The notes below the pieces were generated by a model, which did not search any database, was not told the origin of the DNA, and saw nothing but the letters and a program-made list of their open reading frames with translations. A DNA stretch of 63,935 nucleotides, counting the filler, from Reclinomonas americana ATCC 50394 (lineage: Eukaryota): NCBI GenBank assembly GCA_048213135.1. It is 12 parts of 11 records of this genome, joined end to end, with 100 filler letters (N's around TTAATTAATTAA, not from the genome) between each part and the next. Parts side by side here need not be neighbours in the genome. Positions count along the whole stretch, not along the records: positions 31,320 to 41,925 come from PS016016.1; positions 42,026 to 49,474 come from AFZH01016455.1; positions 49,575 to 56,069 come from PS016017.1; 9 more parts are not named here. One strand, 5' to 3'. This document shows, piece by piece, positions 25,489-54,900 of the stretch (position 1 is its first letter; each line of letters begins with the position of its first letter). A program made the translations under genes and the position numbers.

Positions 25489-25533
<45 letters not shown>

Positions 25534-25712
25534 CGTCTCCCTCCTAAATGTGCTTCCTGCGTCGTGCCTCGCCTCTGTGTGGTTGTACCCCTTTCTCCAG
25601 TGCTTGGCGCTCCCAATCTCACATGTTCTCTGCTCCCCCACTCCTCCTCCCCTCCTCTCTCTCTCCTCTCTCTCTCGCTCTGTCTGTCTGTCTCTTTCTC
25701 TCTCGCGGTCTG

Positions 25713-25744
<32 letters not shown>

Positions 25745-26484
25745 TGTCTCTCTCTCTCTCTCTGTCTATCTCTGTCTGTCTGTCGTCTCTTTCTCTCTCG
25801 CTGTCTGTCTCTCTCTTTCTCCCTGTCTCCTTCTCGTTTTCTCTCACTCTCTCTTTCTGTCTGTGTGTCTCTCTCTGTCGCTTTTTCTCGCACTCTACCT
25901 TCCTGTTGTATTTTTCATGGTTTCTCCCTCGCCTCACTCACCTCCTCCCTCGCAGAACAATGTGGTGCACCGCGACATCAAGCCGTCCAACGTGCTCCTC
26001 GATCACCGCTTCGAGCCATGTCTCGGTGACTTTGGAATTGCGCGGTCGATCGCCGGAGGCAAGGTCTGCTCTTCTCTTCTCTTCCGTCTCTTTCTCGCCC
26101 TCGCTCACTCTCTAATCTCCCAAGTCAACTCCCGCCGCCGGCACGCCCGACTACATGGACCCACTGGCCATGCGCGCGAGGCAACCCCTCCCAGAGCACG
26201 ACGTCTACAGCATGGGCGTCGTGTTGGTGCAGCTGGTCACCAGCAAACCCGTTGTGACGGTGGGCGAGTGGTCCCTCGCGTGGGATCGCTCGCCAGCCTC
26301 ACTGCGCGTGATGGAGCTGATGGACGGTGGAGTGGAGTGGACTCCGCGCATCGCTGAACCGATGTTCGAGCTCGGCATGCGGTGCATGAGCGTGCGACGA
26401 GACAGACCGACGGCACAAGAGGCACTCGATGTGATGCGCTCGGTGCGCGAGGCGTGTGGGCAGTTCACGCTGGTTGTTGATTGA
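23191..26484 (+). pseudogene. Ankyrin / Pro-Gln linker / coiled coil / Pelle-IRAK-like kinase, copy 1; apparent frameshift near 23305-23316
   Basis: Colinear with 26936-29941 but 2 nt shorter after KEM, giving TAG at 23311-23313. Downstream exons are open (GEGGQG, VAIK, HRDIKPSN, DFG, GTPDYMDP, DVYSMG). Confidence 0.7.
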
Positions 26485-26935
26485 ATTGAAGGCAACGGTT
26501 TTGAGAAGAGAGCAGTGCACTTCTGACGGTGGTCTACTTGGTCTCAATCTTGAAGAACCTCCTGTTCCCTTGCAAGAGTGTGATGTGTGAACGAGACAAG
26601 ACAGGGAGGAGACTGCGAGGAGGTCGAGACAGAAAGCGAATTCGAGAGTTTCTTGCAACTTTCAAGGGAGGAGGTGAGACAGGAGGCCACGGTGTGGTCC
26701 GTGAGCGACACTGGCACATGCGCGTGAAAGCATTGAGCATTGGACACGTCGCGAAGTCGAATGCGAAGGCATTGCAAATTTAAAGTTGATGCACTTGCCT
26801 GGTGATATCGAAGCTTGTGGCGTCTCGGGTGATTGGATTCGTTATCGAGTGCTCACTGCTAACGAGAGTGCGAGCTGGTCATCGAACTGTCCTGTCAAAG
26901 TCATGTTCGGGTTCGACGCCGGTTGTTTTTTAAGA

Positions 26936-29900: not shown

Positions 29901-29941
29901 TTCGCGAGGCGTGTGGGCAGTTCACGCTGGTTATTGATTGA
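26936..29941 (+). CDS. Ankyrin / Pro-Gln linker / coiled coil / Pelle-IRAK-like Ser/Thr kinase, copy 2 (intact)
   Basis: About 4-5 ankyrin repeats (GNTPLMIAA, STALHYAAVNGH), poly-Q/P linker, Gln-rich coiled coil, and kinase RFEWPEILLATDSFS..KVGEGGQGAVF, VAIK, HRDIKPSNVLL, DFG, DVYSMGVVL, split by short GT-AG introns. Confidence 0.88.
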
Positions 29942-32642: not shown

Positions 32643-34553
32643 NNNNNNNNNNNNNNNNNNNNNNNNNNNNNNNNNNNNNNNNNNNNNNNNNNNNNNNNNN
32701 NNNNNNNNNNNNNNNNNNNNNNNNNNNNNNNNNNNNNNNNNNNNNNNNNNNNNNNNNNNNNNNNNNNNNNNNNNNNNNNNNNNNNNNNNNNNNNNNNNNN
32801 NNNNNNNNNNNNNNNNNNNNNNNNNNNNNNNNNNNNNNNNNNNNNNNNNNNNNNNNNNNNNNNNNNNNNNNNNNNNNNNNNNNNNNNNNNNNNNNNNNNN
32901 NNNNNNNNNNNNNNNNNNNNNNNNNNNNNNNNNNNNNNNNNNNNNNNNNNNNNNNNNNNNNNNNNNNNNNNNNNNNNNNNNNNNNNNNNNNNNNNNNNNN
33001 NNNNNNNNNNNNNNNNNNNNNNNNNNNNNNNNNNNNNNNNNNNNNNNNNNNNNNNNNNNNNNNNNNNNNNNNNNNNNNNNNNNNNNNNNNNNNNNNNNNN
33101 NNNNNNNNNNNNNNNNNNNNNNNNNNNNNNNNNNNNNNNNNNNNNNNNNNNNNNNNNNNNNNNNNNNNNNNNNNNNNNNNNNNNNNNNNNNNNNNNNNNN
33201 NNNNNNNNNNNNNNNNNNNNNNNNNNNNNNNNNNNNNNNNNNNNNNNNNNNNNNNNNNNNNNNNNNNNNNNNNNNNNNNNNNNNNNNNNNNNNNNNNNNN
33301 NNNNNNNNNNNNNNNNNNNNNNNNNNNNNNNNNNNNNNNNNNNNNNNNNNNNNNNNNNNNNNNNNNNNNNNNNNNNNNNNNNNNNNNNNNNNNNNNNNNN
33401 NNNNNNNNNNNNNNNNNNNNNNNNNNNNNNNNAGAGGCCAAGAGGCTGCAGCGCGCGGCCGGCGCCGGCGCCGCCGCCGCCGCCGAGAGCGACGAAAGTG
33501 CCGATCCCGACACCCGATACGCCGCGACATTTCCGTGGACCGAGCCGGAGACCAACACCATGTTGGCGCTGCCGAAAAAAGAATGTGCGTGCGCTCGCGT
33601 GCTTTCCTCTTTTTCTCCTGCTCCTTCTCACTCGCGCGCGCGCACACGCAGTCCTCGTGGAGAACCCGCGCGTCCTGTACGTGGGCCTGGTGGATCTGCT
33701 CTTCGCCTACTGCTACAACCACCGCGTCACCGGCGGCGAGAACACGGTCGAGTCGGCGTGGACCATTTGTACGCTGTCGTCGACGCTGTCGTGGTTGGAT
33801 GTTGCGTGTGATCGCGCCTCGACGTGGTCCCTCGGGTCGTTGGGGAGCAACTGACGATATGCGTGCCAGGTGTTCTCCGACGTGGAGGAGTGCGTGGTCA
33901 GCTGCTTCCGACGAGCACTCTCCTATCCGTTGTATCGGCATTTCGGCTTGTGTGAGACGGTGAGCAGAAGAAGGAGTGTGGGGCGGTTTGGAGACGATGC
34001 CATAATTATGCATTTGTGCAGGTGCTCCGTGACGTGGCGACTGTGCTTTCGCTCGGACTGCCAAGGTGAGTCCCATTGGGAAGTTTCAGCGTGATGAAAG
34101 GTGACAGCGCATGATGTGAAGGGATGGTGAGAAGAGGGAGAAGAGGGGGAGAGACGTCGTCAGCCGCTATTGTTCTTCACGGCTTGCTTTGTTTTGGATC
34201 CCACTCTGTGCTGCGCCAGCGTCCTGCGATGTCTGCTGGAGATTCGCTACATTTTCGAGCACTCGGAGCCGCGCTACATTCTCAACAAGCTCTACATTGA
34301 CGACTACTGCATTTGGATACAATCGCTGCGGTTTGTGTACAGTGGCGCACACTTCAAGTGGCAAGGGCCTTATCTCTCCCTCTCCTCCCACAGGTCCGGA
34401 AGTCTCAGACCGCTGCTGGAGCGAGTAGAGGCGTGTCACGTGAGCAAGGAGAGCATCGAGTGGCCGTTGGAGGCACTCGAATCGATTGCGGCAGAGGGAG
34501 GTGGAGAGGAGGAGGAGGAGGATATAGAGGAGCAGGACATAGAGGAGCGATGA
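32315..34553 (+). CDS. SHQ1: H/ACA RNP assembly factor SHQ1 (5' part in gap)
   Basis: YGFNQLYSG, EDEKFDADHYM, GLVDLLFAYCYNHRVTGGENTVESAWTICTLSSTLSWLD, RRALSYPLYRHF, RYILNKLYIDDYCIWIQ. Confidence 0.93.
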
Positions 34554-35127
34554 GGCGGTAAAAAGCGTTTGTAGACTGGCAAGGGTGATGAGGGAGTCTG
34601 TTGATGAGTGCACTGGTTGCGAGTGAGAAAGAGAGAGAATGAGAAGAAGGCAATTATAGGCTACAATATTGTGCCTCAAGAGCGAGAAAGTAATACTCAT
34701 GCTTGATGTTGCCGCTGAGTGAACGATGACGCCTCAGGGCGGCTAGAATTCTTTTACCTCGTGCAGCTGCATTATGGCCCCAATTTCAACCATTTTCATT
34801 CGTCTAGCTCCTCCTCCTCCTGTGACAACAACATCAACAGTTAGCCACATGAAGACAGGACTCATGCAGAGTCCAATTTGTCACAACTCAAGGCAACTGC
34901 TCTTCAGCGTCCCTCTTTGTGATCTGGGTTTCTTTTGTCTACTTCTTCTCCGACGAGATGTCTATGCATGCGCTGCTTGTCCAGTGAAACCTCTTCCCCT
35001 CTCCCCTCCTCTTGCTGCCACTCACTCCCACTCCCTCGCCACGCACCGTTGCAGGCATGTCATCGTCCATCCACGGCTGTGTCTTGCTCTCCACATCCAG
35101 CTCCTCCTCCACCTTGAATTGCTTGTT

Positions 35128-38100
35128 CTACATGTCTTCCTCCTCCTCCTCCTCCTCCTCCTCCTCCTCCTCCTCCTCCTCCTCTTTCTTCACCACCTCC
35201 ATCTTCACCGGCTTCTCGTCACCCAGCACTGCATCATGCGCGTCAGTAATGATGCTGGCACGACATGCCGTAAAGCCAGTTGCTCTCAGATTGTCGTATT
35301 TAAAGCACTCACCGGCACGCGCAATCTCCGCCTTTGAAAGACAACCGTCTCGAAGCAGAGTGGTCAGCAGGCCAGGGCAGGTGCGGAGCAGATGCATGGC
35401 CTGCGTGACAAATGGCAGAAGAACATTCGGCACGGTGCTCGTCCTTGTCGACTTTGCTGACTCCTGCCAGAGTACGCAAAGTGAACAAGCTAGCATCGAT
35501 TCACAGAACCACACATCCAGGAGACATGCCTCACAGTAGCCGCAATCGTCGATGACAATCAGTGGTCTCTCGACAGCATCCACGAGCTCAGCTCCTCGAA
35601 GACCACTCTTCTGATGATCCCGCATATAATGAACTCAAGTCAATGTCACGATCGGAGGCGACACAGAAACAACACACTGGCACTCACCTCGATGAAGTGG
35701 CTCACGCTCGCCAGTACACCCTCAACTGACTTGGGCGTCTCGCTGCGTGCCGTGCCGGCACTTTTGGCAAGACTCTTCCCAAATGTAGACATGACTGCGG
35801 ATGATGGACAGCCAGGTCCCTCCGACGGAATTGCGCATTCGTCACAGGCAAGCTGGAAGAGAACGCGCTGATGATGCAAGACTGTGGATCTCAGCACCAA
35901 GGGTGCCATGAGTCCGAATGCCTGCACCAGAACCCTCTTCCTGTTGCAGCGCTGCTCCCAAGTGTGGTGGGTGAGTGGGGGCGAGCAGCAGAGCAGAGTG
36001 GTAACAACAACACGCAACTTGTAGTCTCGTGAGCATTAGCTGCTCGTTGATGCTCAACTTCGCAGGGCCACTCTTGTGGCGCTGCGTTGCGAACCATACA
36101 GTTTTGAAATGCACACATCATTCCCGTTCCCTAGATAGCAGCGACGGGCGTACCTTGTGCCTCCCACTTCCCTTCCCGTCGTCGTCCTCTCTCTCCTCTT
36201 TCTTCTCCTCTTTTCCCTCCTCTTTCTTCACCATCTCAATCTCCCTCAGAGCTGCCCATTGCTTGTCAGCACACGCTCACAATGTACAGCAAAGAATGTC
36301 ACGCAGCCAAACCTCGCTCACTGCACCACTCGGCGGCACGTTCAATCTCCGCCTCGGAAAGGAAACCGTCTCGAAGCAAAGTGGCCAACAGGTCAGGGCA
36401 GTTGTGGAGAGCCTGCATGACCAGTGTGACAAAGGGCAGGAGAGGATTTTGGTTGCCGTATCTCTGCATCAGCTTGGCTGATTCCTGCCACGCGAGAAAC
36501 GAGAAAGTGAGACAATATCATTGATACACAGCAACGCACACAATCACAGTCTGCATGCCTCCGAGTAGCCACGCTCGTCAATCGCAATCAATGGTCTCTC
36601 GACAGCGTCTACCAGCTCAGCTCCTCGAAGACCACTTTTCTGATGATCCCGCATACATTGAACTCAAGTCAGTCACCAGAATGTCACAATCGGGGGCGAC
36701 ACAGAAACAGCAAACTGACACTCACTTCGATGAACTTGCTCACGCTCGCCAGCACACCCTCAACTGACTTGGGCGGCTTGTTGCGTGAATTGCGGGCACC
36801 ATCGGCAAGACTCTTGACAAATGCAGACATGACAGCGGATGATGGACAGCCAGGTCCCTTTGAGGGTATTCCGCATTCGTCACAGGCAAGCTGGAAGAGA
36901 ACGCGCTGATGATGCAAGACTGTGGATCTCAGCACCAAGGGTGCCATGAGTCCGAATGCCTGCACCAGAACCCTCTTCCTGTTGCAGCGCTGCTCCCAAG
37001 GGTGGTGGGTGAGTGGGGGCGAGCAGCAGAGCAGAGAGGTAACAACAACACGCAACATGTAGTCTTGTGAGCATAAGTTGCTCGTTGACGCTCAACTTCG
37101 CAGAGCCACTCTTGTGGCGCTGCGTTGCGAACCATACAGGTTTGAAATGCACACATCATTCCCGTCTCATAGATAGGAGTGACGGCGTACCATGTGTCTT
37201 GTGTTTCCCTTCCCGTCGTCGTCCTCATTCTCGCTGCCGACATCATCATCCGCCTGCTCGTCCTCCTCTCTCTTCTCCTCCTTCTCCATCATCTTCAGCT
37301 CCCGCAGAGCTGTCCCTTGCCAGTCAGCGCTTGTCCACAATGTGCAGCTATGCAGCCTCACACCCAAACCTCGCACACTGCACCACTCGACGGCTCCTGC
37401 AATCTCCGCCTCGGACAGACAACCGTCTCGAAGCAGAGTAACCAGCAGGCCAGGACAGTTGTGGAGAGCCTGCATGGCCAGTGTGACGAACGGCAGGAGA
37501 GGATTTTGGTTGCCGTATCTCTGCATCAGCTTGGCTGATTCCTGCCACCCGAGAAACGAGAAAGGGAGTCAATCATCATCGGCACACAACAGCACACAAT
37601 CATGTCCACAAGCCTCCGAGAAGCCACGTTCGTCAATCACAATCATTGGCCTCTCAACAGCATTCACAAGCTCAGCTCCTCGAAGTCCGCTTCTCTGATG
37701 ATTACATACACATTCGTGTCAAGTCAGCAAGCAGGCAAGTCACTGTTGAATGAAAAACAAAGTGAACACAGAGACACTCACCTCGATGACGTTGCTCACG
37801 CTCGCCAGCACACCCTCCACTGACTTGGACGTCGTGCCGCGTGCCGTGCCGGCACTATTGGCAAGACTCTTGCCGAATGCATACATGACTGCGGATGACG
37901 GGCAGCCAGGTCCCTTCGATGGCATTCCGCATTCGTCGCAAGCAAGCTGGCAGAGAGTGCGCTGGTGGTGGAGGACTGTGGATGGCAGCACCACGGGCGC
38001 CATAAGGCCGAATGCCTTCACCATCATCCTCTTCTTGTTGCAACCCTGCTCCGAGACGAGGTGAGTAGATGGGAGTGGCAGCATTGTCAGTGACATACAT

Positions 38101-41100
38101 AGAGATAACAGCAACACGCAACAAGCAGTCTCGTCAGCATCAGTTGCTCGTTGATGCTCAACTGCGAAGGACCACTGTTGTGGCTCTGGGAAACGCACAC
38201 AACGACTTGTTTAGATACACAGCTCTTGCATCATTCAGAAAAGCGAGGCAGACGTACCTTGCCTCTCGCGTCGACATCCTCATTCTCGCTGTCGTCATCA
38301 TCCTGCTGCCCTTCCTCCCCCTTCTCCTCCTTCTTCATCATCTCCAACTCTCTCCGAGCTGTGCCCGATTGTCAGTACGTGCACACATCGTGCAGCAATT
38401 GCAAAAGTCACGCAGCCAAACCTCGTTCAGTGCACCACTCGACAGCGCTTGCAATACCCACCTCGGAAAGAGAACCGTCTCGAAGCAGAGTGGCCAGCAG
38501 ACCTGGGCAGTTGCGAAGAGCATCCGCGGCCTGTGTGAAGAATGGCAAAAGAGGACTGTGCCTTTTGCGCATTATCCCAGGCAAGTTTGACGACTCCTGA
38601 CATCCGATTTTTCCGGAGCACAAAAAATGAGAAACCACAATCAAGCATAAACATCGCACAGAGAGCGCGAAAAAGCCGCACCTTCGAATGGCCGCGATCA
38701 TCCACCGCAACCACTGGCCTCTCAATGGCGTCCGCCAAAGCAGCGCCACGCAGTTCACTCTTCTGCACAGTGGCACATGCATTAGAGATGGTCTTCAGCT
38801 TGAGAGAGATGGACGCTGCTCACCTCCACAAAGTTGCTCATCAGCTGGAACACTCCCTCAACTGATCTGGGCGTCTTGTCGCGTACGTGTTGGGCGACTT
38901 GGCCAAGACCCTTGCCAAATGAGCTCACAACTGCCGTCGAAAGGCAGCCTGCTTTCGATGGAGGGATGCCACACTCCTTGCATGCCAAGTCAACAAGAGC
39001 GCGCTGGTGATGGCGGACGGTGGATCCCATCACGGTCGGTGCCATGATGCCGAATGCCGTCAGCAATATCTTCGACTTGTTGCAGCACTGCTCTTGTATG
39101 GAACACATCGTGGTGCAAAGAATCAATCGGCCAGACGACTGCCGAAGAAGGACATAAATGCAAACACACGCAACAAGAAGCCTTGCTAGCAACAGTTCTT
39201 CGTCCTTGCTCATTGTTGCAGCACCACTCTCTCGTCGCTGTGGACACGCATCATCAGATGCTGTCACAGTGTGCACAACCGCCACACCATCCATGGTCGT
39301 ACCTTGCTCCTTTCACCATCGCCCATGTCCTCGTCCTCATCGTCGTCCATTTCCTCCCTCGAATCATCCTTCTCCTCCTCCTCCTCTTTCATCTCTTCTT
39401 TTTTCATCACCTTCGCCTCCAGCAGAGCTGCATCTCACTTGTCAGTTCTGACCCCAAGCACGGTAGGACGTACTCGATGCCATCAGACCTCTTTTGCTGC
39501 ACCACTCGACGGCCCGTGCGATCTCTGCCTCGGAGAGACAGCCGTCTCGAATCAACGACGTTTGCAAGCCAGGACACTCCCGTAGTGCGTGCGCGGCTTG
39601 GGAGACGAGCGGCAGGAGACGGTCCGTGCTCCTCCCTTTACTCGCCGCCGTCTGCCATGACTCCTACAGCACGACCGACATCGTGGAAGATGCATGCAAG
39701 TCAACAACTCAACGCAGAAATACAAGAAGCACACAGTGAAAAATTGGCGCACCTCAGAATAACCACGTTCATCCACCACAATCAGTGGTCTCTCGATGGC
39801 ATTCGCCAGTGCGGCGCCGCGCAGTTCACTCTTCTGTGCAGTTGCACACGCATCGTTGTTGGCTCCCTTTCCAGTTATGTGTGAAAAAGATTGCACAGAC
39901 AGATACTCACCTCGATGAGCTTACTCATGCTCTGGAGCACTCCTGCAACTGATTTGGGTGTCTTGGCGCGTGCCTTTTGGACGAATAAACCAAGGCTCTT
40001 GCCGAATGAGTCCATGGCTGCAGGCGACGGAGAGCCAGCTCCTGATGAAGGAATGCCACACTCCTTACAGGCGAGTTCAGCGAGAACGTGCTGATGATAG
40101 AGGACGGCGTTTCCCTTCAGAATAGGTGCCATGATGCCGTATGCCATCACCAGTATCTTCTTCTTGTGGCATCGCTGTTCACAAACACAACGTAACAAGT
40201 GTTACGACAAGCATGCACACGGAAGAATCAATCACTCAGTCTTGGTAAGGTGCTGCGGACATGCACACGACACGCAACAAGCAGTCTGTCCAACACCATT
40301 CGCTCGTCCTTGCTCATCTCCGCATCAAACGCATGGCGACCACACTTGACCCGCTGCAAATGCACACGCAACGCGACATCCACAATCAACAAATCTGCCT
40401 CACCAACCACACAGACATTGTCTCATCTACCTTCTTCGCCTTTGATTCTTCTCCATCGTCACTGCCGGTCTCCACCTGCGGACACACAAGGCATCAACGC
40501 TCGACCGAGACTCGCACATTCGCTACAAGCCTCTCTTACTCATGCATTATTGCTGCGTACCTTGGTGTCATCATCTTCAAGCTTGACGGCATCCTTCTCT
40601 TCTTCCACATCCTTCTCCTCCTTCACCAGCAACTTCACATCATCAGATTCTGTGCTCTGCTGATCAATACCAGCGCATGCAACAGCAACAGCCGCACAAA
40701 ATTGCAGACCTTTCGATCGGCACCCAGCGACGGCGCGTGATATCCTGGCCTCAGAGAGGCGACTGTCTCGAAGCAGAGCAGTCATGAGACCATCGCACTC
40801 GCGCAGCGCATCCATGGCCTGTGTGGCAAACGGCAGAAGATGGTCCTTTCTGGTCTTGTTGGAGGGGCGCAAGATCTCCCACGATTCCTGTCACGTACAA
40901 GCCGTGTGAGCCAAGTCAACCGGCATGATCACAACTGCCACTGAAGGCCATGCGAAGCAAACGCACCTCCGAATAACCGCGCTCATCCACTTTTATAAGT
41001 GGTCTCACAACAGCATCCACCAGAGCCGCGCCACTGAGTTGGCTCATCTGCATAATGCAATCTTTCGGTCACATGTCACGGTCATTCACAGGCACACATG

Positions 41101-41858
41101 CTCACTCACCTCGATGTAGTTGCTCACGCTCTGGAGCACACCCTCCACTGACTTGGGCATCCTGCTTCGTGAATCACTGGCACTCGAGCCAAGACTCTTG
41201 CCGAAAGCACACTTGACAGCAGATGACGTGCGACCCAGCTCCGACAATGGAATCCCGCAGTCATCACGGGCAACCTCGAAGAGAACACTCTGATGGTGGA
41301 CGACTGTGTATCCGTGTACGATGGGTGCCATCAGGCCAAATGCCTTCACCAGGATCCTCTTCCGATTGCATTGCTGCGAGTGACACACGAAGAGATGAGG
41401 AGGAGGAGAGAGCCGGGTTGCCATGTTGACAAAGAGCAAGCACACGCAACAAGTAGCTTGTTAAACAGCAGCTTCTCGTCTGCGCTCAACTCTTCTGACT
41501 TTTTGGCAGCTTGACCCTTGCCACCCTGTGAAACCACGATGACACACAAGAACCAAATGCAGATCTACGAACAAGCACAACAATGTTCAGCGACAGAATA
41601 TCCACACCTTCTTCTTCTTCTTCTTTGGCGGTGCCAGCTCGTCATCGCTGGATGCATCCACCTGCAGACAACGAAGAGAAAACATCAGGTGTCAACTGCG
41701 ATGCACAAGCGAGAGGCAAGTTGAGACGCGCGCCTCATCGGAGCTCACCTCCAGAGAACGCTTGCGGGCTGATGCCTCTTCTGAGTCACGTGCAGGCAAG
41801 TCCTCACTGTGATCCACCAGAGACGAGTCGACTCGCTGTCCCCTCGCATGTTGCTGTT

Positions 41859-41915
<57 letters not shown>

Positions 41916-42277
41916 TAGTACGTAGNNNNNNNNNNNNNNNNNNNNNNNNNNNNNNNNNNNNNNNNNNNNTTAATTAATTAANNNNNNNNNNNNNNNNNNN
42001 NNNNNNNNNNNNNNNNNNNNNNNNNCCCCGACGCATTCTTCTTCTTCTCATCATCATCGTCATTGATGTTGATGAAGAGAGAGGAGGAGGAATGCGTCAT
42101 CACCGTCGTCATCACATGCTGCTTGCTGTCGACGAGCATCATGTCTGCTTTCTCATCGTCGCACGGAGCAGAGGCAGACATTGACAGCGAAGGAGTTGTT
42201 GTAGTTGTTGAGTGAGGGCGTGGAGGCGGAGGAGGAGGAGGAGGAGGAGGAGGAGGAGGAGGAGGTCGAGAGGCCAT
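35128..42277 (-). CDS. Uncharacterised multi-exon protein A: poly-Pro N-terminus, 6 tandem copies of a ~220-aa Cys/His-containing domain, poly-Glu tail
   Basis: Starts MASRPPPP. Repeat core CNRKRILVKAFGLMAP...HHQRVLFQLACDECGIP...PKSVEGVL..VSNFIE ends at ~41110, 39910, 38823, 37782, 36726 and 35688. Ends EEEEDM-stop. The model crosses one contig linker. Confidence 0.75.
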
Positions 42278-43468
42278 TTGTGTGTGTCTTTGTTGTTGTT
42301 TCTCGCACACACGCGCGCACTGCGTGATGCAAGAAACGAAGAGAGAGAGAGAATGAAGATTCGTTGATCCGAACAGCAAAGATGAAAAGGTGACAAGTCG
42401 TGATGTGACGGGCGAAAGAGGATGAGTGTTAAGGGAAAAGGGGAAGGAGGAACTGGGCAACGTTGGGTGCATCGTCAACTGCGATTGTTCTCCACGAGCA
42501 ACACATGCATGTCTCTTTGTTTCGGACCTCTTCTGGAGAGAACATAGATCACGGAAAGGTGATGCTGAGATGATGATGGACAATAACTCCACACAGGGCA
42601 CAACAGCGCACGTGAGCAGCTGCATCATGGCGGCATCACCTCGATGGACACCGAGGAAGAGCCTCATCAGATACATGAGAAGGTCTCGATCTCTGCGATG
42701 CAGCTGAAAACCAGAACCTCGATCGTCATCGAAACTGCATTCCAAGCGCACCCGTTGAGATGGTGTCAAGTGCAGGTGCAGGAGTATTCACAAAGCAGCA
42801 CCTCCTTCTCCTTCAAATTCGAACCACATGCACGAGTCATCTGCACAATCTCGTGGTGGGGTACTCCCGTCCCCGCAGCTGCTGGTGGGCCAACATACAC
42901 CAACGATGTGCTGCTCTGCCGCTACCATGAACACAGAAGAAGCACGTGTCGTTGGTTACCAATCTGGCTGGACATGGTCAACAAGACAGCCATTCTCGTG
43001 TTTGTTGTTGCTGAGAGTGAGCAACACGCACGAATACAAATGGATGCCCCGGGGCGACTGCACCAACAATACCATGATGGCCCCAATTTCCAATCATTCT
43101 TCATTCGTCTTGCTGCCCCTCCTGCGACAACAACAACAGCAGTCAGCAGCATGAAGACAAGACTCTCATGCAGAGTCAATCCCGCACAGCACAAGGCAAC
43201 CTCTCAATTAAGCAGTGTCCCCCTTGGTGCACTGTGTTTCTGCTTTTGTCTTCTTCTTCCCCGACAAGCTCCATCGATCTCACAAACAACATGCATGTGT
43301 TGCCTGCCAAGTGAAACATTTCTCCCTCTCTCACTCATCCGTCCGGCTGCCCCTCATTCCCACACCCTCGCCACTCACCGATGCAGGCATGCCACTTTCC
43401 ATCAACAGCAGTGGCATGCCCTGCAAGTCCAGCTCCTCCTCCATCACCACCACTCTGAATTTCTTGCT

Positions 43469-46400
43469 CTACATGTCCTCGTCCTCCTCCTCCTCCTCCT
43501 CCTCCTCCTCCTCCTCCTCCTCCTCCTCCTCCTCCTCCTCCTCCTCCTCCGCTTCCTCCTCTTCTTTCTTCACCACCTCCATCTTCACCGGTTTCTCGTC
43601 ATCCAGCACTGCATCACGCATGTCAGTGCGGTCGTCAGGGTGACATGCAACAACAACCAGGTGCTCTCAGATAGTTGCACTTGGTGCACTCACCGGCACG
43701 CTCAATCTCCTCCTTCGAAAGGCAACCATTTCGAAGCAGAGTGGCCAGCAAGCCAGGACAGGTGCGAAGCATATGCATGGCCTGTGTGACAAACGGCAGA
43801 AGAAGATTTTGGTTGCCGTTCTTCGGTAACTCTGCTGACTCCTGCCACCCGAAAAACGAGAAAGTGAGTCAAGAGTCATTGATACACAGAACCACACATT
43901 GTGAGACATGCCTCAGAGTAGCCACGCTCGTCAATCACAATCGGTGGTCTCTCGACAGCATCCACCAGCTCAGCTCCTCGAAGTCCACTCTTCTGATGGC
44001 GACATCCACGTCGAAGTCGAGTCAGGTGTCACGCACATAACAATCGGAAGGAAACTGAAACACCACACAGACACTCGCCTCGATGAAGCTGCTTACGCTC
44101 TCGAGCACACCCTCCACTGACTTGGGCGTCGTGCCGCGTGCCGTGTTGGCAGTATTGGAAAGGCAATTGCAAATTGCTGACATGACTGCGGATGAGGGGC
44201 AGCCTGGTCCCTTCGTCGGTATTCCGCATCCGTCACAAGCAAGTTGGAAGAGAAGGCGCTGATGATGCAAGACTGTGGATCTCATCACCACAGGTGCCAT
44301 GAAGCCGAATGCCTTCACCAGTATCCTCTTCCTGTTGCACCTCTGCTCTCGAGAGATAGACGGGTGGATGAAAGTGAGGAGCTTATGACAGCAATGTCGG
44401 CGATACAAAGAACACGCAACAAGCAATCTCGCCAGCATCAATTGCTCGCTGATGCTCGAATTCGCAGAATCAATCTTGCGGCGCTGTGAAACACAAGCCA
44501 CGCAGTATTAAGACGTACCTCTCGCATCTCACTGAAGAGAGCGTCGGGCGTACCTTCTTTCCCTTCGCGTCATCGTCCTCATTGTACATGTCGCTGCCGT
44601 CACCATCCACCTCCCTCTCCTCCTCTTTCTTCACCATCTCCATCTCCCTGACGACTGGTCATTTGCTTGTTAGCACATACATGCACAGTGCAGCAATGAA
44701 AGTCAGGCAGCCAAACCTCTTTCACTGCACCACTCGACGGCGCGTGCAATCTCCGCCTGCGGAAGGCAGCCGTCCCGCAGCAGAGTGACCAGCAGATCTG
44801 GACAGCTGCGCAGAGCCTGCATGGCCTGCGTGGTGAATGGCAGACGAACATTTGAAGGGCCTCGCTTCTGCGATTTTGCTGCTGATTTCTACCATCCGAG
44901 CCACATCAATGTGAGCCAGCTTTCAATGACGCACATCAGCAAACACACAATTTCACACGCACCTCAGAGTAGCCACGCTCGTCAATCACAATCAGCGGTC
45001 TCTCGACAGCATTCACAAGCTCAGCTCCCCGAAGTCCGCTCTTCTGATGGTGACATCCACGTCAAAGTCGAGTCAGGTGCCACGCACACAACAATCGGAA
45101 GGACACTGAAACAACACACCGACACTCACCTCGATGAAATTGCTCACACTCTTCAGCACACACTCCACCGACTTGGACATCTCGCAGCGTGCCGTGTTGG
45201 CACTCCTGGCAAGACTTTTGCCAAATGCAGACAAGACTGCGACTAGAGGGCAGCCTGGTCCCTTCGACGGTATTCCGCATTCGTCGCAGGCAAGTTGGAG
45301 GAGAGCACGCGGATGATGGAGGACTGTGGACGGCAGCACCACAGGTGCCATGAGGCCGAATGCCTTCACCAGCATCCTCTTCTTGTTGCAACCCTGCTCC
45401 AAGATGTGGTTGGCAGATGGGAGTGACAGCATTGTCGGCGACAAGCATAGAGATAACAGCAACACGCAACAAGCAGTTTCGCCAGCATCAATTGCTCGTT
45501 GATGCTCAGCTGCGCAGGACCACTCTTGCGGCGCTGTGGAGGGCAATCACGACAGAGTTCGGACACGCACCTGTCTCGCATCTAACGGAAACGGGCGATG
45601 GGGGCGTACCTTGCCATTGTCCTCGTCCACCTGCTCATCCTCCCACTTCTCTTCTTTCTTCACCATCTCCAACTTCCGCAGAGCTGTTCAGTTGCTTGTG
45701 AGCACATGCATTATCCAGCCACGAAGCCAAGCAGCCAGACCTCTGTCACTGCACCACTTGACGGCACGCGCAATCTCCGCCTCGGACAGACAGCCATCTC
45801 GGAGTAGTGTGGACAGCAGACCAGGGCAGTAATGGAGAGCCTCCACGGCCTGTGTGACATATGGCAGAAAGGGACTCTGCTTGTTGCGCAAAGCCCTCGG
45901 CAAGCGCGATGACTCCTGACAACCGAATTCCAGAGCACAGAATGTGAGAAAGCATCATTACAGACATACAACGTACACAGAGCGCAAGGCGGGCATACCT
46001 CCGAAAAGCCGCGTTCATCCACCAAAACCACAGGTCTCTCAATGGCGTCCGTCAGGGCAGCACCACGCAATTCACTCTTCTGCATAATGGCACATACATA
46101 GCGTTGATCATGGATCGAATCGGTCGAGTAATATAGACGCTGCGCACCTCGATAAAGTCGCTCATCATCTGAAGTACTCCCTCAACAGACTTGGGCGTTC
46201 TGGCGCGTGCCCCTTCGACGACACCGACAAAACACTTGCAGCATGAGCTCACCACTGCCGACGACAGACAATTTGCTTTCGATGGAGGGATGCCACACTC
46301 CTTGCATGCCAGGTCAAAAAGAACACGCTGATGATGGCGGACGGTGGATCTCATCACCATCAGTGCCATGATGCCAAAGGCCTTCACCAGTATCTTCTTC

Positions 46401-49358
46401 TTGTTGCAGCACTGCTCCCGCATGGAACACATCAGTCACTCAATCAGCCAGACGACTGCCAGAGAAGGACATAAATGCAAACACACGCAACAAGAAGCCT
46501 TGCTAGCAACAGTTCTTCGTCCTTGCTCATTGTTGCAGCACCACTCTCTCGTCGCTGTGGACACGCATCATCAGATGCTGTCACAGTGTGCACAACCGCC
46601 ACACCATCCATGGTCGTACCTTGCTCCTTTCACCATCGCCCATGTCCTCGTCCTCATCGTCGTCCATTTCCTCCCTCGAATCATCCTTCTCCTCCTCCTC
46701 CTCTTTCATCTCTTCTTTTTTCATCACCTTCGCCTCCAGCAGAGCTGCATCTCACTTGTCAGTTCTGACCCCAAGCACGGTAGGACGTACTCGATGCCAT
46801 CAGACCTCTTTTGCTGCACCACTCGACGGCGCGTGCAATCTCCGCCTCGGAGACACAGCCGTCTCGAATCAGCGACACTTGCAAGCCAGGACACTCACGC
46901 AGGGCCTGCGCGGCCTGGGAGACGAGCGGCAGGAGACGGTCCGTGCTCCTCCCTTTACTCGCCGCCGTCTGTCATGACTCCTACAGCACGACCGACATCG
47001 TGGAAGAAGCACGTAAGTCAACAACTCAAAAAGCAGAAATACAAGAAGCGCACAGTGAAAAGTTGGCGCACCTCAGAATGGCCACGTTCATCCACCACAA
47101 TCAGTGGTCTCTCAATGGCGTCCACAAGAGCAGCACCATGCAGTTCACTCTTCTGTGCAGTTGCACATGCATCGTTGTTGGCTCACTTTCCAGATATGTG
47201 TGAAATAGATTGCACAAACAGATACTCACCTCGATGAACGCGCTCATGCTCTGAAGTACTCCCTCAACGGACTTGGGTGTGTTGGCGCGTGCACTTTGGA
47301 CAAACAAACCAAGGCTCTTGCTGAATGAGGCCATGACTACGGAAGACGGAGAGCCAGCTCCTGACGAAGGGATCTCGCACTCCTTGCAGGCGAGTTCAGC
47401 GAGAACGCGCTGATGATGCCAGACTGCAGATCGCATCACAACAGGCGCCATGATGCCGTATGCCATCACCAGTATCTTCCTCTTGTTGCACAGCTGATCA
47501 TGCACACACGCACGAAGCAGGTGTTATGAAAGGCAAGCACATGGCAGAGTGCAATCAATCTGCCACGCTGAGGTATCGTGGGACATGCAAACGCAACAAG
47601 CAGACTGTCCAAGATCATTCGCTCGTCCTTGCTCATCTCCGCATCATAGACATTGCGACCACTCTTGACCCGCTGCAAATGCACACGCAACGCGACATCC
47701 ACAATCAGCAAGCCTGCCTCACCAACCATACACAGACATTGATATCGTCTTACCTTGCTCGGCTTCGATTCTTCGTCACTGTCACTGCCGGTCTCCACCT
47801 GCGGACACACAAGGCATCAACGCTTGACCGAGACTCGCACATTCGCTACAAGCCTCTCTTACTCATGCACTATTGCTGCGTACCTTGGTGTCATAGTCTT
47901 CAAGCTTGACAGCATCCTTCTCTTCTTCCACATCCTTCTCCTCCTTCATCACCATCTTCTCATCGCCAGATCCTGCGTGGTGCTCATCAACACCAGTGCA
48001 AGCAACACTAACTGCCACTTGAGATCGCAGACCTTTCGCATGGTACCAAGCGACGGCGCGTGATATCCTGGCCTCAGAGAGGCGACTGTCTCGAAGCAGA
48101 GCAGTCATGAGACCGTCGCACTCGCGCAACGCATCCATGGTCTGCTTGACAAACGGCTGAAGATTGTCTTTCTTAGCTTTGCTGTTCGGTGCAAGTCTCT
48201 CCCACGATTCCTGTCACAAGCAAGCCGAGTGAACGAAGATTAGTCGATATGATCGCAACACACGCAGAAAATCATGCTTCACAAACTTACCTCCGAATAA
48301 CCGCGCTCATCCACTTTTATAAGTGGTCTCTCAACAGCATCCACCAGAGCCGCGCCAACTAGCTGGCTCATCTGAAGGATTGCAATCATTTGCATGTCGG
48401 TTCACATGCCACGGTCGTTTCAGGCATACATGCTTGCTCACCTCGATGTAGTTGCTCACTCGCTGGAGCACACCTTCCACTGACTTGGGCGTTTTGGTGC
48501 GTGAACGGTTGGCAGTCCCGCCAAGTCTCTTGCCGAATGCACACTTGACGGGAGACGACGTGCGACTCTGCTCCGACAACGGAATCCCGCACTCGTCACA
48601 GGCCAGCTCAAAGAGAACACTCTGATGGTGAATGACTGTGGATCCTTGGACAATAGGCGCCATTATCCCGAATGCATTCAGCAGAATCCTCTTCCGATTG
48701 CATCGCTGCGAGTGACACGAAGAACAGTGAGTGCGACGAGGAGATGGGTTGCAATGATGTGCATGCACACGCAACAAGCAGCCTGTTCAGCAACAGCTTC
48801 TCGTTGGCGCTCAACTCCTCTGGCTCTTTCGCAGCTTGACTCTGGCCACCCTGTGAATCCACGATGACAAAAGAGAACCAAATGCAGATCTACGAACAAG
48901 CATAACAATGTTCAGCGACAGAAAATCCACACCTTCGTCTTCTTCTTTGGCGGTGCCAGCTCGTCGTCGCTGGATGCATCCACCTGTGGAGAATGAAGAG
49001 AAACATCAGGTGCAAACTGCGATGCACGAGCGAGAGGCAAGCTGAGACGCGTGTCACATCGAAGCTCACCTCCAGAGAACGCTTGCGGACCGATGTCTCG
49101 ACTGAGTCACGTGAAGGCAAGTCCTCACTGTGATCCACCGGAGACGAGTCAACTCGCAGTCTTCTCGCACGTTGCTGTGCAATCAATCAAAAGAAAGAGA
49201 TGGCCAGTGAGAGGCATGCATATCTTGGGATGACACACAATCACTGTACCTCGACGATGCCTTCCATCGCCGTGTGTTCCATGTGCTCCTGGTGAGCAGC
49301 TGCGTGCATGCACCGTCCAGGTAAGGCACTACGAGACACGAGAGCACCAAAAGCAGTG

Positions 49359-49437
<79 letters not shown>

Positions 49438-50234
49438 GAGACGACGACGACGACGACGTACGTACGTACGTACGNNNNNNNNNNNNNNNNNNNNNNNNNN
49501 NNNNNNNNNNNNNNNNNNTTAATTAATTAANNNNNNNNNNNNNNNNNNNNNNNNNNNNNNNNNNNNNNNNNNNNAGAAGAAGAAGAAGAAGAGAAGAAGA
49601 AGGAGGAGGAGGAAAAGAAGGAGGAGGAGGAGAAGAAGAGGAGGAGGAAGAGAGAGAGAGAGCATGACACACTCTCTATCATCATCACCCAGCATCACCT
49701 TGAGAGGAAAACAGATGTGAAGCTCAACACAGCCACACAGACACACAGAGGGAGGCAGAGCGAGCATGCACACCTGTGGCCACATGAAGGGCACATAGAG
49801 TACAACGGCATCACAAGTGCACCAGGCACAAAGAGAGAGATGAAGTCCACATACACACACACACACACACACACACCTTTCTCGGCAGTGACACTGGTGG
49901 TGGTGACGGAGGTGGAAGAAGAAGAATAAGAGGAGGCAGGCACTCGTCGCCTCGCCATCGCAGGTACACCACGATGAGCAGACGATCCCGATGATGCGCT
50001 CTTCTTCTTCTTCTCATCATCATCATCACACCCGTTGATGGAGGGAGAGGAGGAATGCATCATCATCATCGTCGGCGTCGTCACATGCTGCTTGCTGTCG
50101 ATGAGCATCACGTCTGCTTTCTCATCGTAGTCGCACGGAGACGAGGCAGACATTGGCAGAGAAGGAGTTGTTGTTGTTGTTGTTGTTGAGTGAGGGCGTG
50201 GTGGAGGAGGTGGAGGAGGAGGGCGAGAGGCCAT
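43469..50234 (-). CDS. Uncharacterised multi-exon protein B, tandem paralog of A with 5 copies of the same domain
   Basis: Same MASRPPPP start and EEEEDM-stop. Repeat cores end at ~48442, 47231, 46149, 45131 and 44079. Flanking non-coding sequence is homologous to that of gene A. Confidence 0.75.
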
Positions 50235-51037
50235 TTGCGTGTGTCTTTGTTGTTATTTCACACACACGCGCGCGCTGCGTGATGCAAGAAATGAAGAGAG
50301 TAAAAGAAGATTCGTGGATCCCAGCAAGATGAAAAGGCGACAAGTCGTGATGTGCAGCGAGGAGTGTGGTGGATGGGGGGATGGTAAAAGGGGGAAGGAA
50401 AGGGAGAAAGAGAGAGAGAAACCTGTTCTCACACGTGCACGGNNNNNNNNNNNNNNNNNNNNNNNNNNNNNNNNNNNNNNNNNNNNNNNNNNNNNNNNNN
50501 NNNNNNNNNNNNNNNNNNNNNNNNNNNNNNNNNNNNNNNNNNNNNNNNNNNNNNNNNNNNNNNNNNNNNNNNNNNNNNNNNNNNNNNNNNNNNNNNNNNN
50601 NNNNNNNNNNNNNNNNNNNNNNNNNNNNNNNNNNNNNNNNNNNNNNNNNNNNNNNNNNNNNNNNNNNNNNNNNNNNNNNNNNNNNNNNNNNNNNNNNNNN
50701 NNNNNNNNNNNNNNNNNNNNNNNNNNNNNNNNNNNNNNNNNNNNNNNNNNNNNNNNNNNNNNNNNNNNNNNNNNNNNNNNNNNNNNNNNNNNNNNNNNNN
50801 NNNNNNNNNNNNNNNNNNNNNNNNNNNNNNNNNNNNNNNNNNNNNNNNNNNNNNNNNNNNNNNNNNNNNNNNNNNNNNNNNNNNNNNNNNNNNNNNNNNN
50901 NNNNNNNNNNNNNNNNNNNNNNNNNNNNNNNNNNNNNNNNNNNNNNNNNNNNNNNNNNNNNNNNNNNNNNNNNNNNNNNNNNNNNNNNNNNNNNNNNNNN
51001 NNNNNNNNNNNNNNNNNNNNNNNNNNNNNNNNNNNNG

Positions 51038-51925
51038 GGAGAATGGTAGGAGAAGAAGAAAGGCGATTACTGGTTGCAATACAGGTTACAGTGTGCTGCG
51101 ATTGTCCTTGCTCCTCTCCTCTTCTCTCACACACATGGAGCCACAATCGCTCTTTGTGCGCAGCATTCAACCTGTACTCGCCCGCAAACAGGCTCGCAAA
51201 CGACTGCTGAGTGCACTCTTTGCCAGTGTGCGACGTGCAAGTGAGGCCGTCTGTGCGATTGTTGAGCAGCAGCGGAGAGGCGGCGGAGAAGGCGAAGGAG
51301 ATGGAGAAGAAGGGGAGGAGAATGGGGAGAGAATGGTAGGAGAAGAATACAGCGATTAGTGATTAATACAGGTGTACAGTGTGCTGCGATTGTCCTTTGC
51401 TCCTCTTCTCCTGTCTCTCACATGGAGCCACAATCGCTCTTTGTGCGCAGCATTCAACCTGTACTTGCACGCAAACAGGCTCGCAAACGACTGCTGAGTG
51501 CACTCTTTGCCAGTGTGCGACGCGCGAGTGAGGCTGTGTGTGCGATTGTTGAGCAGCAGCGGAGAGGCGGAGAAGGCGATGGAGATGGAGAAGAAGGGGA
51601 GGAGAATGGGGGGGAGAGTGGCAGGAGAAGAATAAAGGCGATTACTGGTTACAATACAGGAGCAATCAATGTACAGTGCTGCGATTGTCTCCTCTCTTCT
51701 CCTTTCTCACACATGGAGCCACAATCGCTCTTTGTGCGCAGCATTCAACCTGTACTTGCACGCAAACAGGCTCGCAAACGACTGCTGAGTGCACTCTTTG
51801 CCAGTGTGCGACGCGCGAGTGAGGCCGTCTGTGCGATTGTTGAGCAGCAGCGGAGAGGCGGCGGAGAAGGCGATGAAGGAGATGGAGAAGAAGGGGAGGA
51901 GAATGGGGGGAGAATGGTAGGAGAA
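51038..51925 (+). repeat. Three tandem ~290-bp copies containing the start codon and first ~60 codons (MEPQSLFVRSIQPVLARKQ...) of the downstream gene
   Basis: ATGs at 51135, 51422 and 51713, each followed by near-identical sequence. Confidence 0.9.
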
Positions 51926-54900
51926 GTGGGTGTGGGCGTGGGTCGAGTGGATGTCGATGCGGATGATGTGGGAGAGGGAGTTGGAGTGGTGAGGATGTCG
52001 GTGGAGGAGGAGCAGGCGGAGGAGGAGCGGAGGAGAGTGAGAGCGGTGAGTGAGAGAGAGTGTGTGTGTGTTTTGGTGTCTGTGTGATCATCTTGTGTGT
52101 GTGCATTGATCTCTGTCTTTTCACTCATTTCCTTCTTTTGTTCCTTTTCTCTCCGCTTTATCGTTTTCTTCGTCTCGCCTCTTCCTTCTCCTCCTCTCTA
52201 TCTTCACTTTTACACTTGTTTCCTTCTTTTGTTCTCTCTTCTTCTGTCTTTTCCTTCTTCTCCAAAGTCTTTGTGCTCTCTCTTTCTCTTTTCCTCGTGT
52301 CTTTGCTCTCAACCTTTCTTTCTCTCTCCGTCTTCTCCCCTCCTCTTTGTCTCTCATTCCCGTCTTCATTTGTTCTGTTCTCTTCTTTTCTCCTCCTTCT
52401 CCTTCTCTTCTCTCCGCGTACGCTCACTCGCTCACCCTTACTCATCTCCTTGCTCTCAACAAACCTTGTCTTTGCTTTCTTTCTCCATCTGCTCATCTCT
52501 TCCTTCTCCTCCTCTCTATCCCTTCGCTCTTTACACACATTCCTTGCTTCCCTTCTTTCTTTATCTCGTCTCCTTCTTCTTCTCTCCTCCACTCTCATTC
52601 CGTCACTCTTTGCACTCATTCCTTTCTTTATTGTTCTTCCTCCTCCTTCTCCTTTCCTTCTCTCCGCGTACGCTCACTCACTCACCCTTACTCATATCCT
52701 TGCTCTCAACAATCCTTGTCTTCGCTTTCTCTCTCCCCTTGTCTCGCTCTCTCCTCTCCTCTCCACCTCTTCACATTCACTCCTCCTTCCCCTCACCCTC
52801 GTCTTCTCCGCAGTTCGATCCCATGTCCGTGCTGCAGTCACCCGAACTCGCACGCATCACGCGTCTGTTGGAGAAGGCAAGCCTCCTCATCCTGCACTCC
52901 ACCCACCCACCCGCCGACTCATCCCCCCGCCTTCTCATTCACAGCAAGAATGCCGCCTGATGACCATTGGCCGCACCAACACGTTCCGTCTTCTCTCCGT
53001 CCCCTTCCCCCTTAATCTCCCCAGTCACTCATTCCGCCTGCAGCGGCAAGTCCACGCTGTGGAACGCATTTCTCGGTGTCCCCCGTCTCCTCCGTCGCTC
53101 GAGTCGTGCATGCACACCTCGCATTGTGGAGCTCGGACACGGCGAGGTCGGCGAGGCGGTACTGCTGGACGCGCAGGGGCAGGTGCTAGAGTCGCGGCGC
53201 CTGGAGGGTCTCCGACTGCCCGACGACATGGTACGCCGACTGGCGCCGAGCCAGCGCATGCCGGCCGGCAGTGGGGTGGTGGGAGCGGCGGGAGTGGATG
53301 TGGCCGACGAGGAGCAGGTCGGGTGTGTGGTGTGCTGCCAGCTGCCGCTGACGGTGCTCGACACGGGTCTGTGCGTGATTGATTCGCCGGGCCTGGGCGA
53401 GCTGCCGTCGTTGGATGCGGTGGTCAAGCAGCAGGCCGCGGAGGCTGACGGTATTATTTACATTATCGACAGCAGGGATCCCATGAACCGGCAGGTGTGT
53501 GGAGAAGGGGAGAAGGGGCGAAGAGAGAGAGAGAGAGGGAGAGACAGGATGTGTGTGCTTGTGAGTTTCCTCTTGAATCGGTTGCTGTTTTGCCCTCATG
53601 AGAGCGTCATTGTCATTCCAAGAGTCGCCGTTGTCTCTTTCAACTACTTTTCTCACTCTCTCTGGTTGTTTGAGTTTCCTCGCGAATGGAGAAATGTTTG
53701 CTGCGCTCCCCCGCCCTTGGGTCTTTGTATGTAGTTTTAATCACGTTGTTTAATCCTATATCTGTCTCTTTCTATTGACTTCTCTCTCAGCGAGTTTGTG
53801 AGTATCCTCGCAAATCGCCATTGTACGCTGCATTTTAAAACGACACAGTTCGCTCCCTTGACCCTTGGCCATCGTTTCTGGCACTCTCCTTTTCTCTCCT
53901 CCCTCTATTTCATCGTCTGCCTCACTCTGTTCGCCACTTTCTCTTCCCCTGCGTGCCTGTGAGGCATCCCGCAAGTCTGTTGCCCTCTCCCATTGTAGTT
54001 TGTCGTCGACGCGCCGCATTCCATGCGTGATAGTCTCCTTCTCCTGCTTTCTCCCTCTCTCCCCCTGCTCTCTCCAATCTCTAACACCCTTCCCCTTTCC
54101 ACTTCCTCCTTCCTCCAGGACGTGGACACCCTCCGCGAACTCGCCGCCCTCGGCACCCCCATCATGTTCCTCGTCAACCTGTGGCAACGAGCCGACGACG
54201 ACGAAGACGATGATGAAGAGGAAGACAGTGAGGCGGCGGGAATGAGGGAGCTGGAGGCGCTGGAGATGACCATTCGGGAGTTGCGTTCGCGGACTTGTCA
54301 ACCCACCCGTCTTCTCGGTGTCCTCTCGATTGTCTCTCTGCCTCCGCGCCATCATTTCTGCTCTCTCCCGTCTATCTTCAACTCCTCCGCTCTCAGTCGT
54401 CCTCACTGGCTGTCAATCTGCTGCATCCGCGCGGTTATCTCTGCCTCTCCATCCTCCATTTCGTGACTCCCTTTCTATCTCTCGTTCGCTCTCTCTCTCT
54501 CTCGATCACTCTCTCTCTCTCTCGCTACCCCTCTATGTTCGTGACACCTTCTCCCTATCCTCCATTTATTGTGATGCCCTCTCTATCTATCACGCTCTCT
54601 ATCGCTCACTCTCTCTCTCTCTCTCTCTGTTTTGCCCCTCCATGCTCGTGACCCGCTCTGTCCATCCATTTTCAAGACGCCCTTCTCCCTCCTTCCCACC
54701 TTAATCCGCCACACCGTTCTTCCCCCTTCTCAGGCGCTTGCGGGACGTCGGCATGGCCCCCGATGCCTCACGATTGCAGTTTGTCGATGTCAAGCAGGCG
54801 GTCTGTACCATCGTTTCCCTTGTTCTCCAATCAACATTTTGCTCATCACTGACTCACGTTGCTTCTGCACAGTGGCGCGCCTCGGCCGTGAGTCGCCATG

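Follow-up and report, generated by a model that had tools for sequence, protein, structure and literature searches.

A tandem pair of cassette-repeat genes encoding an undescribed Cys/His module in Reclinomonas americana

What is encoded by the repeated block at positions 35128–50234 of a 63,935-nucleotide stretch of Reclinomonas americana ATCC 50394 DNA (GenBank assembly GCA_048213135.1), and how did it come to be built? The stretch, called the window throughout, consists of 12 parts of 11 records of this genome joined end to end. A first-pass annotation, made from the sequence alone, had read the block as two tandem genes composed of 11 copies of a Cys/His domain of about 220 amino acids, each copy with its own set of introns, and could place the domain in no known family. 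The present analysis gave two paralogous genes, A and B, in tandem on the minus strand, with six and five modules respectively, and the outer limits of the block were found to be exact, 35128 being the stop of gene A and 50234 the start of gene B. Taken as a whole, the locus is on balance best explained by tandem genes that grew by duplication of an exon cassette and may encode an intracellular multivalent binder.

Gene models and coding status

The copies of the module were located using tblastn with the peptide of the open reading frame (ORF) at 36684–37091 on the minus strand. This revealed 11 minus-strand copies and no more, with expect values (E) of 2e-28 to 6e-89 and identities of 54–100%, six lying at 35.6–41.4 kb and five at 44.0–48.7 kb. 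A profile hidden Markov model (HMM) of the spliced units, run with filters off against all six-frame ORFs of the window, recovered just these 11 units, as the first-pass annotation had counted them; no further copy was detected in the window by this profile, everything else giving E of 0.68 or worse. The anchor spacing between units was 1018–1212 bases, and exon c of the other units was 53–85% identical to that of unit A1. Within each unit the exons were named a, which encodes an acidic linker, b (63–75 bases), c (264 bases in 11/11 units), d (81 bases in 11/11) and e (148–178 bases). The spliced units reproduced the consensus proposed earlier, while the domain of about 220 residues had to be corrected to a putatively globular module of 185–199 residues plus a linker of 25–45 residues.

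Gene A (35128..42277, minus strand) begins with an ATG at 42277, ends with a TAG whose last base is 35128, and has 33 exons in all, the first of which is interrupted by an assembly gap at 41926–42025. Splicing of exons 2–33 gave 1443 codons in a single open frame, which runs through a poly-Glu tail to the TAG. The part of exon 1 before the gap (42026..42277, minus strand) encodes Met-Ala-Ser-Arg followed by 15 Pro, a start that matches that of gene B with a longer poly-Pro. From the N-terminus, the six modules formed by exons b, c, d and e are A6 at 40710–41525 (exons 41525–41451, 41373–41110, 41047–40967 and 40887–40710), A5 at 39489–40353 (40353–40279, 40174–39911, 39833–39753 and 39663–39489), A4 at 38422–39237 (39237–39175, 39087–38824, 38762–38682 and 38596–38422), A3 at 37370–38185 (38185–38123, 38045–37782, 37694–37614 and 37541–37370), A2 at 36313–37119 (37119–37057, 36989–36726, 36639–36559 and 36484–36313) and the C-terminal A1 at 35313–36081 (36081–36019, 35951–35688, 35610–35530 and 35463–35313). 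The last exon (35128..35228, minus strand) encodes an acidic tail with a poly-Glu run at its end and a net charge of −16 over 33 residues.

Gene B (43469..50234, minus strand) runs from an ATG at 50234 to a stop ending at 43469, and its 29 exons give five modules and 1333 codons, of which one is an internal TGA. Exon 1 (49875..50234, minus strand) encodes Met-Ala-Ser-Arg, a poly-Pro run and a Thr/Ser-rich stretch; its donor was picked for phase 0 and is tentative. The modules, all on the minus strand, are B5 at 48033–48850 (exons 48850–48776, 48705–48442, 48371–48291 and 48210–48033), B4 at 46806–47672 (47672–47598, 47493–47230, 47152–47072 and 46980–46806), B3 at 45741–46554 (46554–46492, 46411–46148, 46079–45999 and 45915–45741), B2 at 44717–45533 (45533–45471, 45393–45130, 45043–44963 and 44888–44717) and B1 at 43694–44483 (44483–44421, 44342–44079, 43992–43912 and 43841–43694). 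The last exon (43469..43608, minus strand) encodes an acidic poly-Glu tail with a net charge of −29 over 46 residues. The last intron is 84 bases long in gene A and 85 in gene B, so that the acidic tail of B is in frame only once this intron is spliced. Triplet microsatellites at 35138–35184, 42222–42265 and 43476–43561 encode the poly-Glu tails and the poly-Pro start, and their lengths differ between the two genes.

Two assembly joins lie within the gene models, one at 41926..42025 within exon 1/intron 1 of gene A and one at 49475..49574 within intron 1 of gene B, both made up of 44 N, a 12-base linker with stops in six frames and a further 44 N. These linkers, read in the two pairs at 41926–42025 and 49475–49574, mark contig joins, and the window is a gapped draft scaffold rich in short introns. 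In total 14 pairs of 44-N runs, 12 bases apart, were present in the window, together with longer N runs of 340–961 bases.

The coding status of the two genes was examined from their frames and substitution patterns. When left unspliced, the frame would be stopped or shifted by 27 of the 32 introns scored in gene A and 24 of the 27 scored in gene B (51/59 in total); since most introns break the frame, the kilocodon frames arise from the proposed joins and not from chance. The ratio of nonsynonymous to synonymous substitution (dN/dS) was 0.25–0.60 in all 16 unit pairs computed over exons c plus d (345 bases, ungapped). Counterparts in A and B were 81–85% identical in exon c and 84–94% in exon d, with most introns at 54–69%, and the GC content was 0.56 in exons (0.64 at third codon positions) and 0.50 in introns. 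By these substitution patterns both genes are under selection, and they are very probably real, protein-coding and structured as modelled. Chance ORFs or an assembly artefact had been considered as a source of the block and were ruled out, the copies being diverged, in frame and under selection. The Rfam search of positions 34000–51000 gave no family reaching its gathering score.

An expectation of the first-pass annotation, that the spliced frames would be free of stops, held for gene A and failed at a single codon of gene B, a TGA at 46972..46974 (minus strand) in exon e of module B4, where the counterpart A5 has TGG. It is quite possible, though not the reading preferred here, that this stop marks gene B as a recently inactivated pseudogene and that gene A alone is functional. 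The remaining 1332 codons of gene B are open, however, and the dN/dS of A5 against B4 was 0.30, which is not above that of other pairs. A second AG is found in frame 12 bases downstream of the exon e acceptor in both B4 (46957–47007, minus strand) and A5 (39640–39690, minus strand), and in B4 it could act as an alternative acceptor that skips the TGA. The TGA may also reflect an allelic variant or an error of sequencing, the assembly being a gapped draft.

Intron pattern and duplication history

Alignment of the genomic units using MAFFT placed five introns per unit at identical columns in 11/11 units, all with AG acceptors, in agreement with the earlier description of about five introns recurring at equivalent positions. 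The junctions are in phase 0 throughout, save that from exon e to exon a, which is in phase 1. For the 59 introns scored, the donor was GT in 54 and GC in 5, with intron lengths of 57–104 bases and a median of 77. Each junction has its own type of donor. At the a-b junction this is mostly GTACG, and at the b-c junction it is GTTGCG in 11/11 units (at 36018, 37056, 38122 and 44420 for example), the preceding exon ending in A or T; a literature search on GTTGCG splice donors returned unrelated papers only. The c-d donor is of the GTGAG type, with the exception of GCGAGT in B1 (44078), and the e-a junction reads AG/GTYTG. At the d-e junction seven units have GT and four have GC (A1 at 35529, A2 at 36558, A3 at 37613 and B1 at 43911). 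Because these four related units share it at the same intron, the GC donor was apparently passed on when the units were duplicated. An extra small exon of 45 bases is present in the A6-to-A5 and B5-to-B4 linkers.

The order in which the units arose was examined from their alignments and from a maximum likelihood tree of the 11 spliced modules. The blastn comparison aligned A6-A5-A4 with B5-B4-B3 at 84% identity over 3.6 kb, the remaining units being about 76% identical, and the genes also have common flanks of approximately 380 bases in the 5′ region and approximately 375 bases in the 3′ flank. The tree paired A6 with B5, A5 with B4 and A4 with B3 at 100% support, and united A1, A2, A3, B1 and B2 in a single clade (97/95) whose internal branching order was not resolved. 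From this pairing, the blastn alignments and the shared flanks, it follows that an ancestral gene that already carried five or more copies of the five-exon cassette was duplicated whole, flanks included, and that gene A afterwards gained one module, in the A1/A2/A3 group. The repeats, the shared intron columns, blastn and the tree thus bear out the claim of two tandem genes with intragenic duplication of a multi-exon unit. No third gene copy begins in the window; this candidate was rejected on the grounds that the flanks match between A and B only.

The identity between copies is patchy. Patches of 80–97% were observed between the genes in A5/B4 introns 3 and 4 and exon e, A4/B3 intron 2 and A3/B2 intron 2, and within them in A1/A2 intron 2 and A2/A3 exon e, while exon b of A4 and B3 is 100% identical. 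Positions 39303–39433 against 46620–46750, A5/B4 introns 3 and 4, and A1/A2 intron 2 are 91–100% identical amid copies that are 76–84% identical. These patches, which take in introns, form a mosaic that points to gene conversion among the modules as well as between the two genes.

Growth of a repeat protein by exon-block duplication is described for nebulin, where the four-exon pattern is the same in every seven-domain block (Bjorklund, Ekman and Elofsson 2006; PMC1553488). Compared with that expansion, the R. americana genes are alike in that every copy has the same multi-exon pattern and arose by internal tandem duplication, and in that exon borders fall both in the linkers and within the domain. 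They differ from it in that the five-exon cassette here encodes one module plus its linker, whereas nebulin has four exons per seven small domains, and in that here the module is without a known family and the whole multi-module gene was tandemly duplicated (PMC1553488). A shared exon-intron pattern and significant similarity between repeats, the marks of a repeat protein grown by duplication of a multi-exon block, were both found at this locus.

Family and fold searches

To the extent that sequence and structure searches can decide it, no described family takes in the module, in line with the first-pass annotation; no confident match to a described domain was obtained from either kind of search. 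The proteins of the window are themselves absent from the collections searched, and the sparse sampling of the lineage limits what "no relative" means here. Seven exon-level peptides were compared with Pfam-A (three of the 11 exon c copies, a read-through of A1 from exon d across intron 4 to exon e, and three exon e peptides) and matched no family even at E up to 10. The best result of profile searches against the PDB was Sarcospan with an E of 0.084, and a second such search gave six rows at E of 0.2 or worse. A word-indexed protein search with exon c, covering longer proteins, produced 149 candidates with none at E ≤0.001, and a search of the same kind with the exon d-e alignment scored 8000 candidates with none at E ≤0.01. 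In metagenome, viral and prokaryote contigs there were 287, 58 and 46 pattern matches respectively, none of which was confirmed. VIA-align gave nothing convincing for the module, Foldseek against the PDB gave 136 rows with none at E ≤0.001 and a best E of 1.4, and the literature search found no paper with any of three module motifs. The failure of the fold searches does not in itself demonstrate a new fold.

Matches in the ESM Atlas had best scores of 0.87 with no Pfam family in common. Near exon c, all of the named clusters were of the transposase/integrase helix-turn-helix kind, which would fit an origin of the protein in a mobile element, for instance in the DNA-binding part of a transposase, with the array as a domesticated or decaying remnant. 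The score of this pointer was 0.78 with 116–131 shared features, which is at the level of chance. An origin of this kind is very improbable: the exon-level peptides gave no match to HTH_32 or HTH_21 in Pfam at E up to 10, the frames are long, intact and under purifying selection, no catalytic domain was found, and the profile HMM detected no copies elsewhere in the window.

An exhaustive profile search of 1,835,955,588 protein representatives gave one match at E ≤0.001, an environmental protein designated P0001 (E 2e-4). This protein contains five 100-residue repeats, each half the length of the module. P0001 and four near-identical relatives (P0001–P0005) are marine environmental proteins with Cys-containing repeats of this size and no Pfam match above cut-off. 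The repeats of P0001 and the module have in common a motif of approximately 33 residues, which in the module falls in the second half of exon c, and the rest aligns without confidence. Comparison of the 11 modules with the P0001 repeats using hhalign gave a probability of 48–52% and an E of 1.4e-4, against 0.3% for the reversed control. The relatives of P0001 were four environmental proteins that provide no bridge to the module. The likeness is a lead, and homology is not established by it.

Conserved residues, charge pattern and proposed function

The residues Cys23, His48, Cys60 and Cys165 (numbering of module A2) are invariant in 11/11 units, and His47 and Cys57 are present in 10/11. For structure prediction two read-through pieces of unspliced translation were folded, with the exons of other units as alignment rows. 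The AlphaFold model of B1 exon b, intron 2 and exon c had a mean predicted local distance difference test (pLDDT) score of 64.5, with values of 77–89 over most of exon c, and contained helices at residues 11–26, 51–62, 68–86, 98–118 and 123–134. The model of A1 exon d, intron 4 and exon e had a mean pLDDT of 54.5 and was unusable. The parts of the module that folded with usable confidence are predicted to be helical, and Cys165 falls in the part that folded poorly.

Conservation of this set of residues, despite synonymous divergence (dS) of 0.2–1.3 between units, is the evidence for a metal- or redox-centred module, in which the invariant Cys and His residues would bind zinc or the CxxC would act as a redox pair and thereby form the functional core. 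In the partial b-c model, however, the HH pair and the CxxC lie on one continuous helix (model residues 68–86), 9–13 residues apart, and at that separation on a single helix they are unlikely to share one ion. In addition no zinc-finger or thioredoxin-like profile was matched at E up to 10, no zinc-finger structure stood among the matches of the PDB-profile and fold searches, and three further Cys columns vary (7/11, 7/11 and 8/9). A functional core of this kind is considered unlikely. Of the earlier suggestion that the conserved C, HH and CxxC may bind zinc, the conservation stands, while the binding itself is conjectural; the absence of a zinc-finger profile match and, in the partial model, the placement of HH and CxxC on one helix count against it.

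The charge of the protein alternates along its length. The modules have isoelectric points (pI) of 8.3–9.6 and net charges of +2 to +12, while the linkers carry net charges of −2 to −13 and contain clusters of Ser and acidic residues, and the product of gene A from exon 2 onwards has a pI of 6.0. A run of Lys directly precedes the first module, and poly-Pro stands at the start of the protein. The basic patches, acidic linkers and poly-Pro start noted in the first-pass annotation were all recovered in the charge calculations and spliced sequences. Reading of the spliced sequences by eye, with no predictor used, gave no hydrophobic N-terminal signal or span of membrane length.

From this charge pattern, and from an architecture of near-equal basic modules that selection and apparent conversion have kept alike, the protein is tentatively proposed to act inside the cell, probably in the nucleus, as a multivalent binder of an acidic polymer. 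Every one of the five or six equivalent basic modules would hold its own site on the polymer, which could be DNA, RNA or chromatin, and the acidic linkers and tail may act as spacers or as autoinhibitory or competitor segments. A comparable arrangement is known from UBF, in which an acidic tail accompanies several HMG boxes, and from nucleolin, a nuclear and nucleolar binder with acidic stretches. The likeness to these proteins extends to several basic modules, acidic segments rich in Ser, Asp and Glu, an acidic C-terminal tail and a Lys run. The R. americana protein differs from both in that its exon-level peptides contain no HMG box, RRM or other domain known to Pfam.

The same alternation of charge would also suit a cytoskeletal or cortical structural protein, as would the equal size of the modules and the absence of enzyme signatures from the Pfam results for this long, modular protein. 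The basic modules of such a protein would attach along the length of a filament, to acidic tubulin tails for example, with the acidic linkers as spacers, in the manner of repeat-type filament-binding proteins. No match to a known filament-binding repeat was obtained, and the Lys run and the Ser/acidic clusters of the linkers look more nuclear, which makes a structural role of this type improbable.

Several points weigh against a tandem pair of genes for a nuclear multivalent binder. The proposed function draws on charge pattern and architecture only, and basic modules with acidic linkers fit other roles, such as the binding of tubulin tails. The suggestion of a multivalent nuclear or scaffold protein in the first-pass annotation draws on composition in the same way. 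No nucleic-acid-binding family, fold or motif was found in the Pfam, PDB-profile or fold searches. The exon d-e half folded with low confidence, so that one globular domain formed by exons b–e is a conjecture. The gene models are predictions from genomic sequence, and gene B carries an in-frame TGA.

The surroundings of the genes contain further repeated sequence. Upstream of gene B, just past a gap of 594 N, a tandem repeat at 51037–51926 has a period of 287–291 bases and 3.1 copies with 88–89% matches. Two long paralogous ORFs with ankyrin repeats, at 1323–3155 and 4071–6191 on the minus strand, form another tandem pair. On the plus strand, tandem genes at 23291–26500 and 26705–29941 have an ankyrin part, a Gln/Leu-rich stretch resembling a coiled coil and a protein kinase part, the Pfam matches having been obtained for the second copy (26705–29941) only. 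An ORF at 52964–53734 on the plus strand contains a dynamin-family GTPase N-terminal domain (E 3.4e-9).

Orphan repeat proteins without known function are common in protist genomes. A cassette-duplicated repeat protein is a known kind, and the module itself is undescribed. The locus provides a selected multi-module protein defined exon by exon, built from a module with no convincing relative among 1.84 billion representatives or in the PDB. It is also a natural example of the duplication of a five-exon cassette, of apparent gene conversion between modules, and of unusual splice donors, namely GTTGCG and a seemingly inherited GC. More speculatively, the module could be the first representative of a lineage-restricted binding fold so far undescribed, perhaps one that reads nucleic acid or chromatin. 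The module would then have been amplified at two levels, as modules within genes and as gene arrays at several loci, and a very distant relation to the P0001 repeats is conceivable. If the module is a new binding fold, it would add a protein family and a lineage-specific component to the cell biology of a poorly known group of protists.

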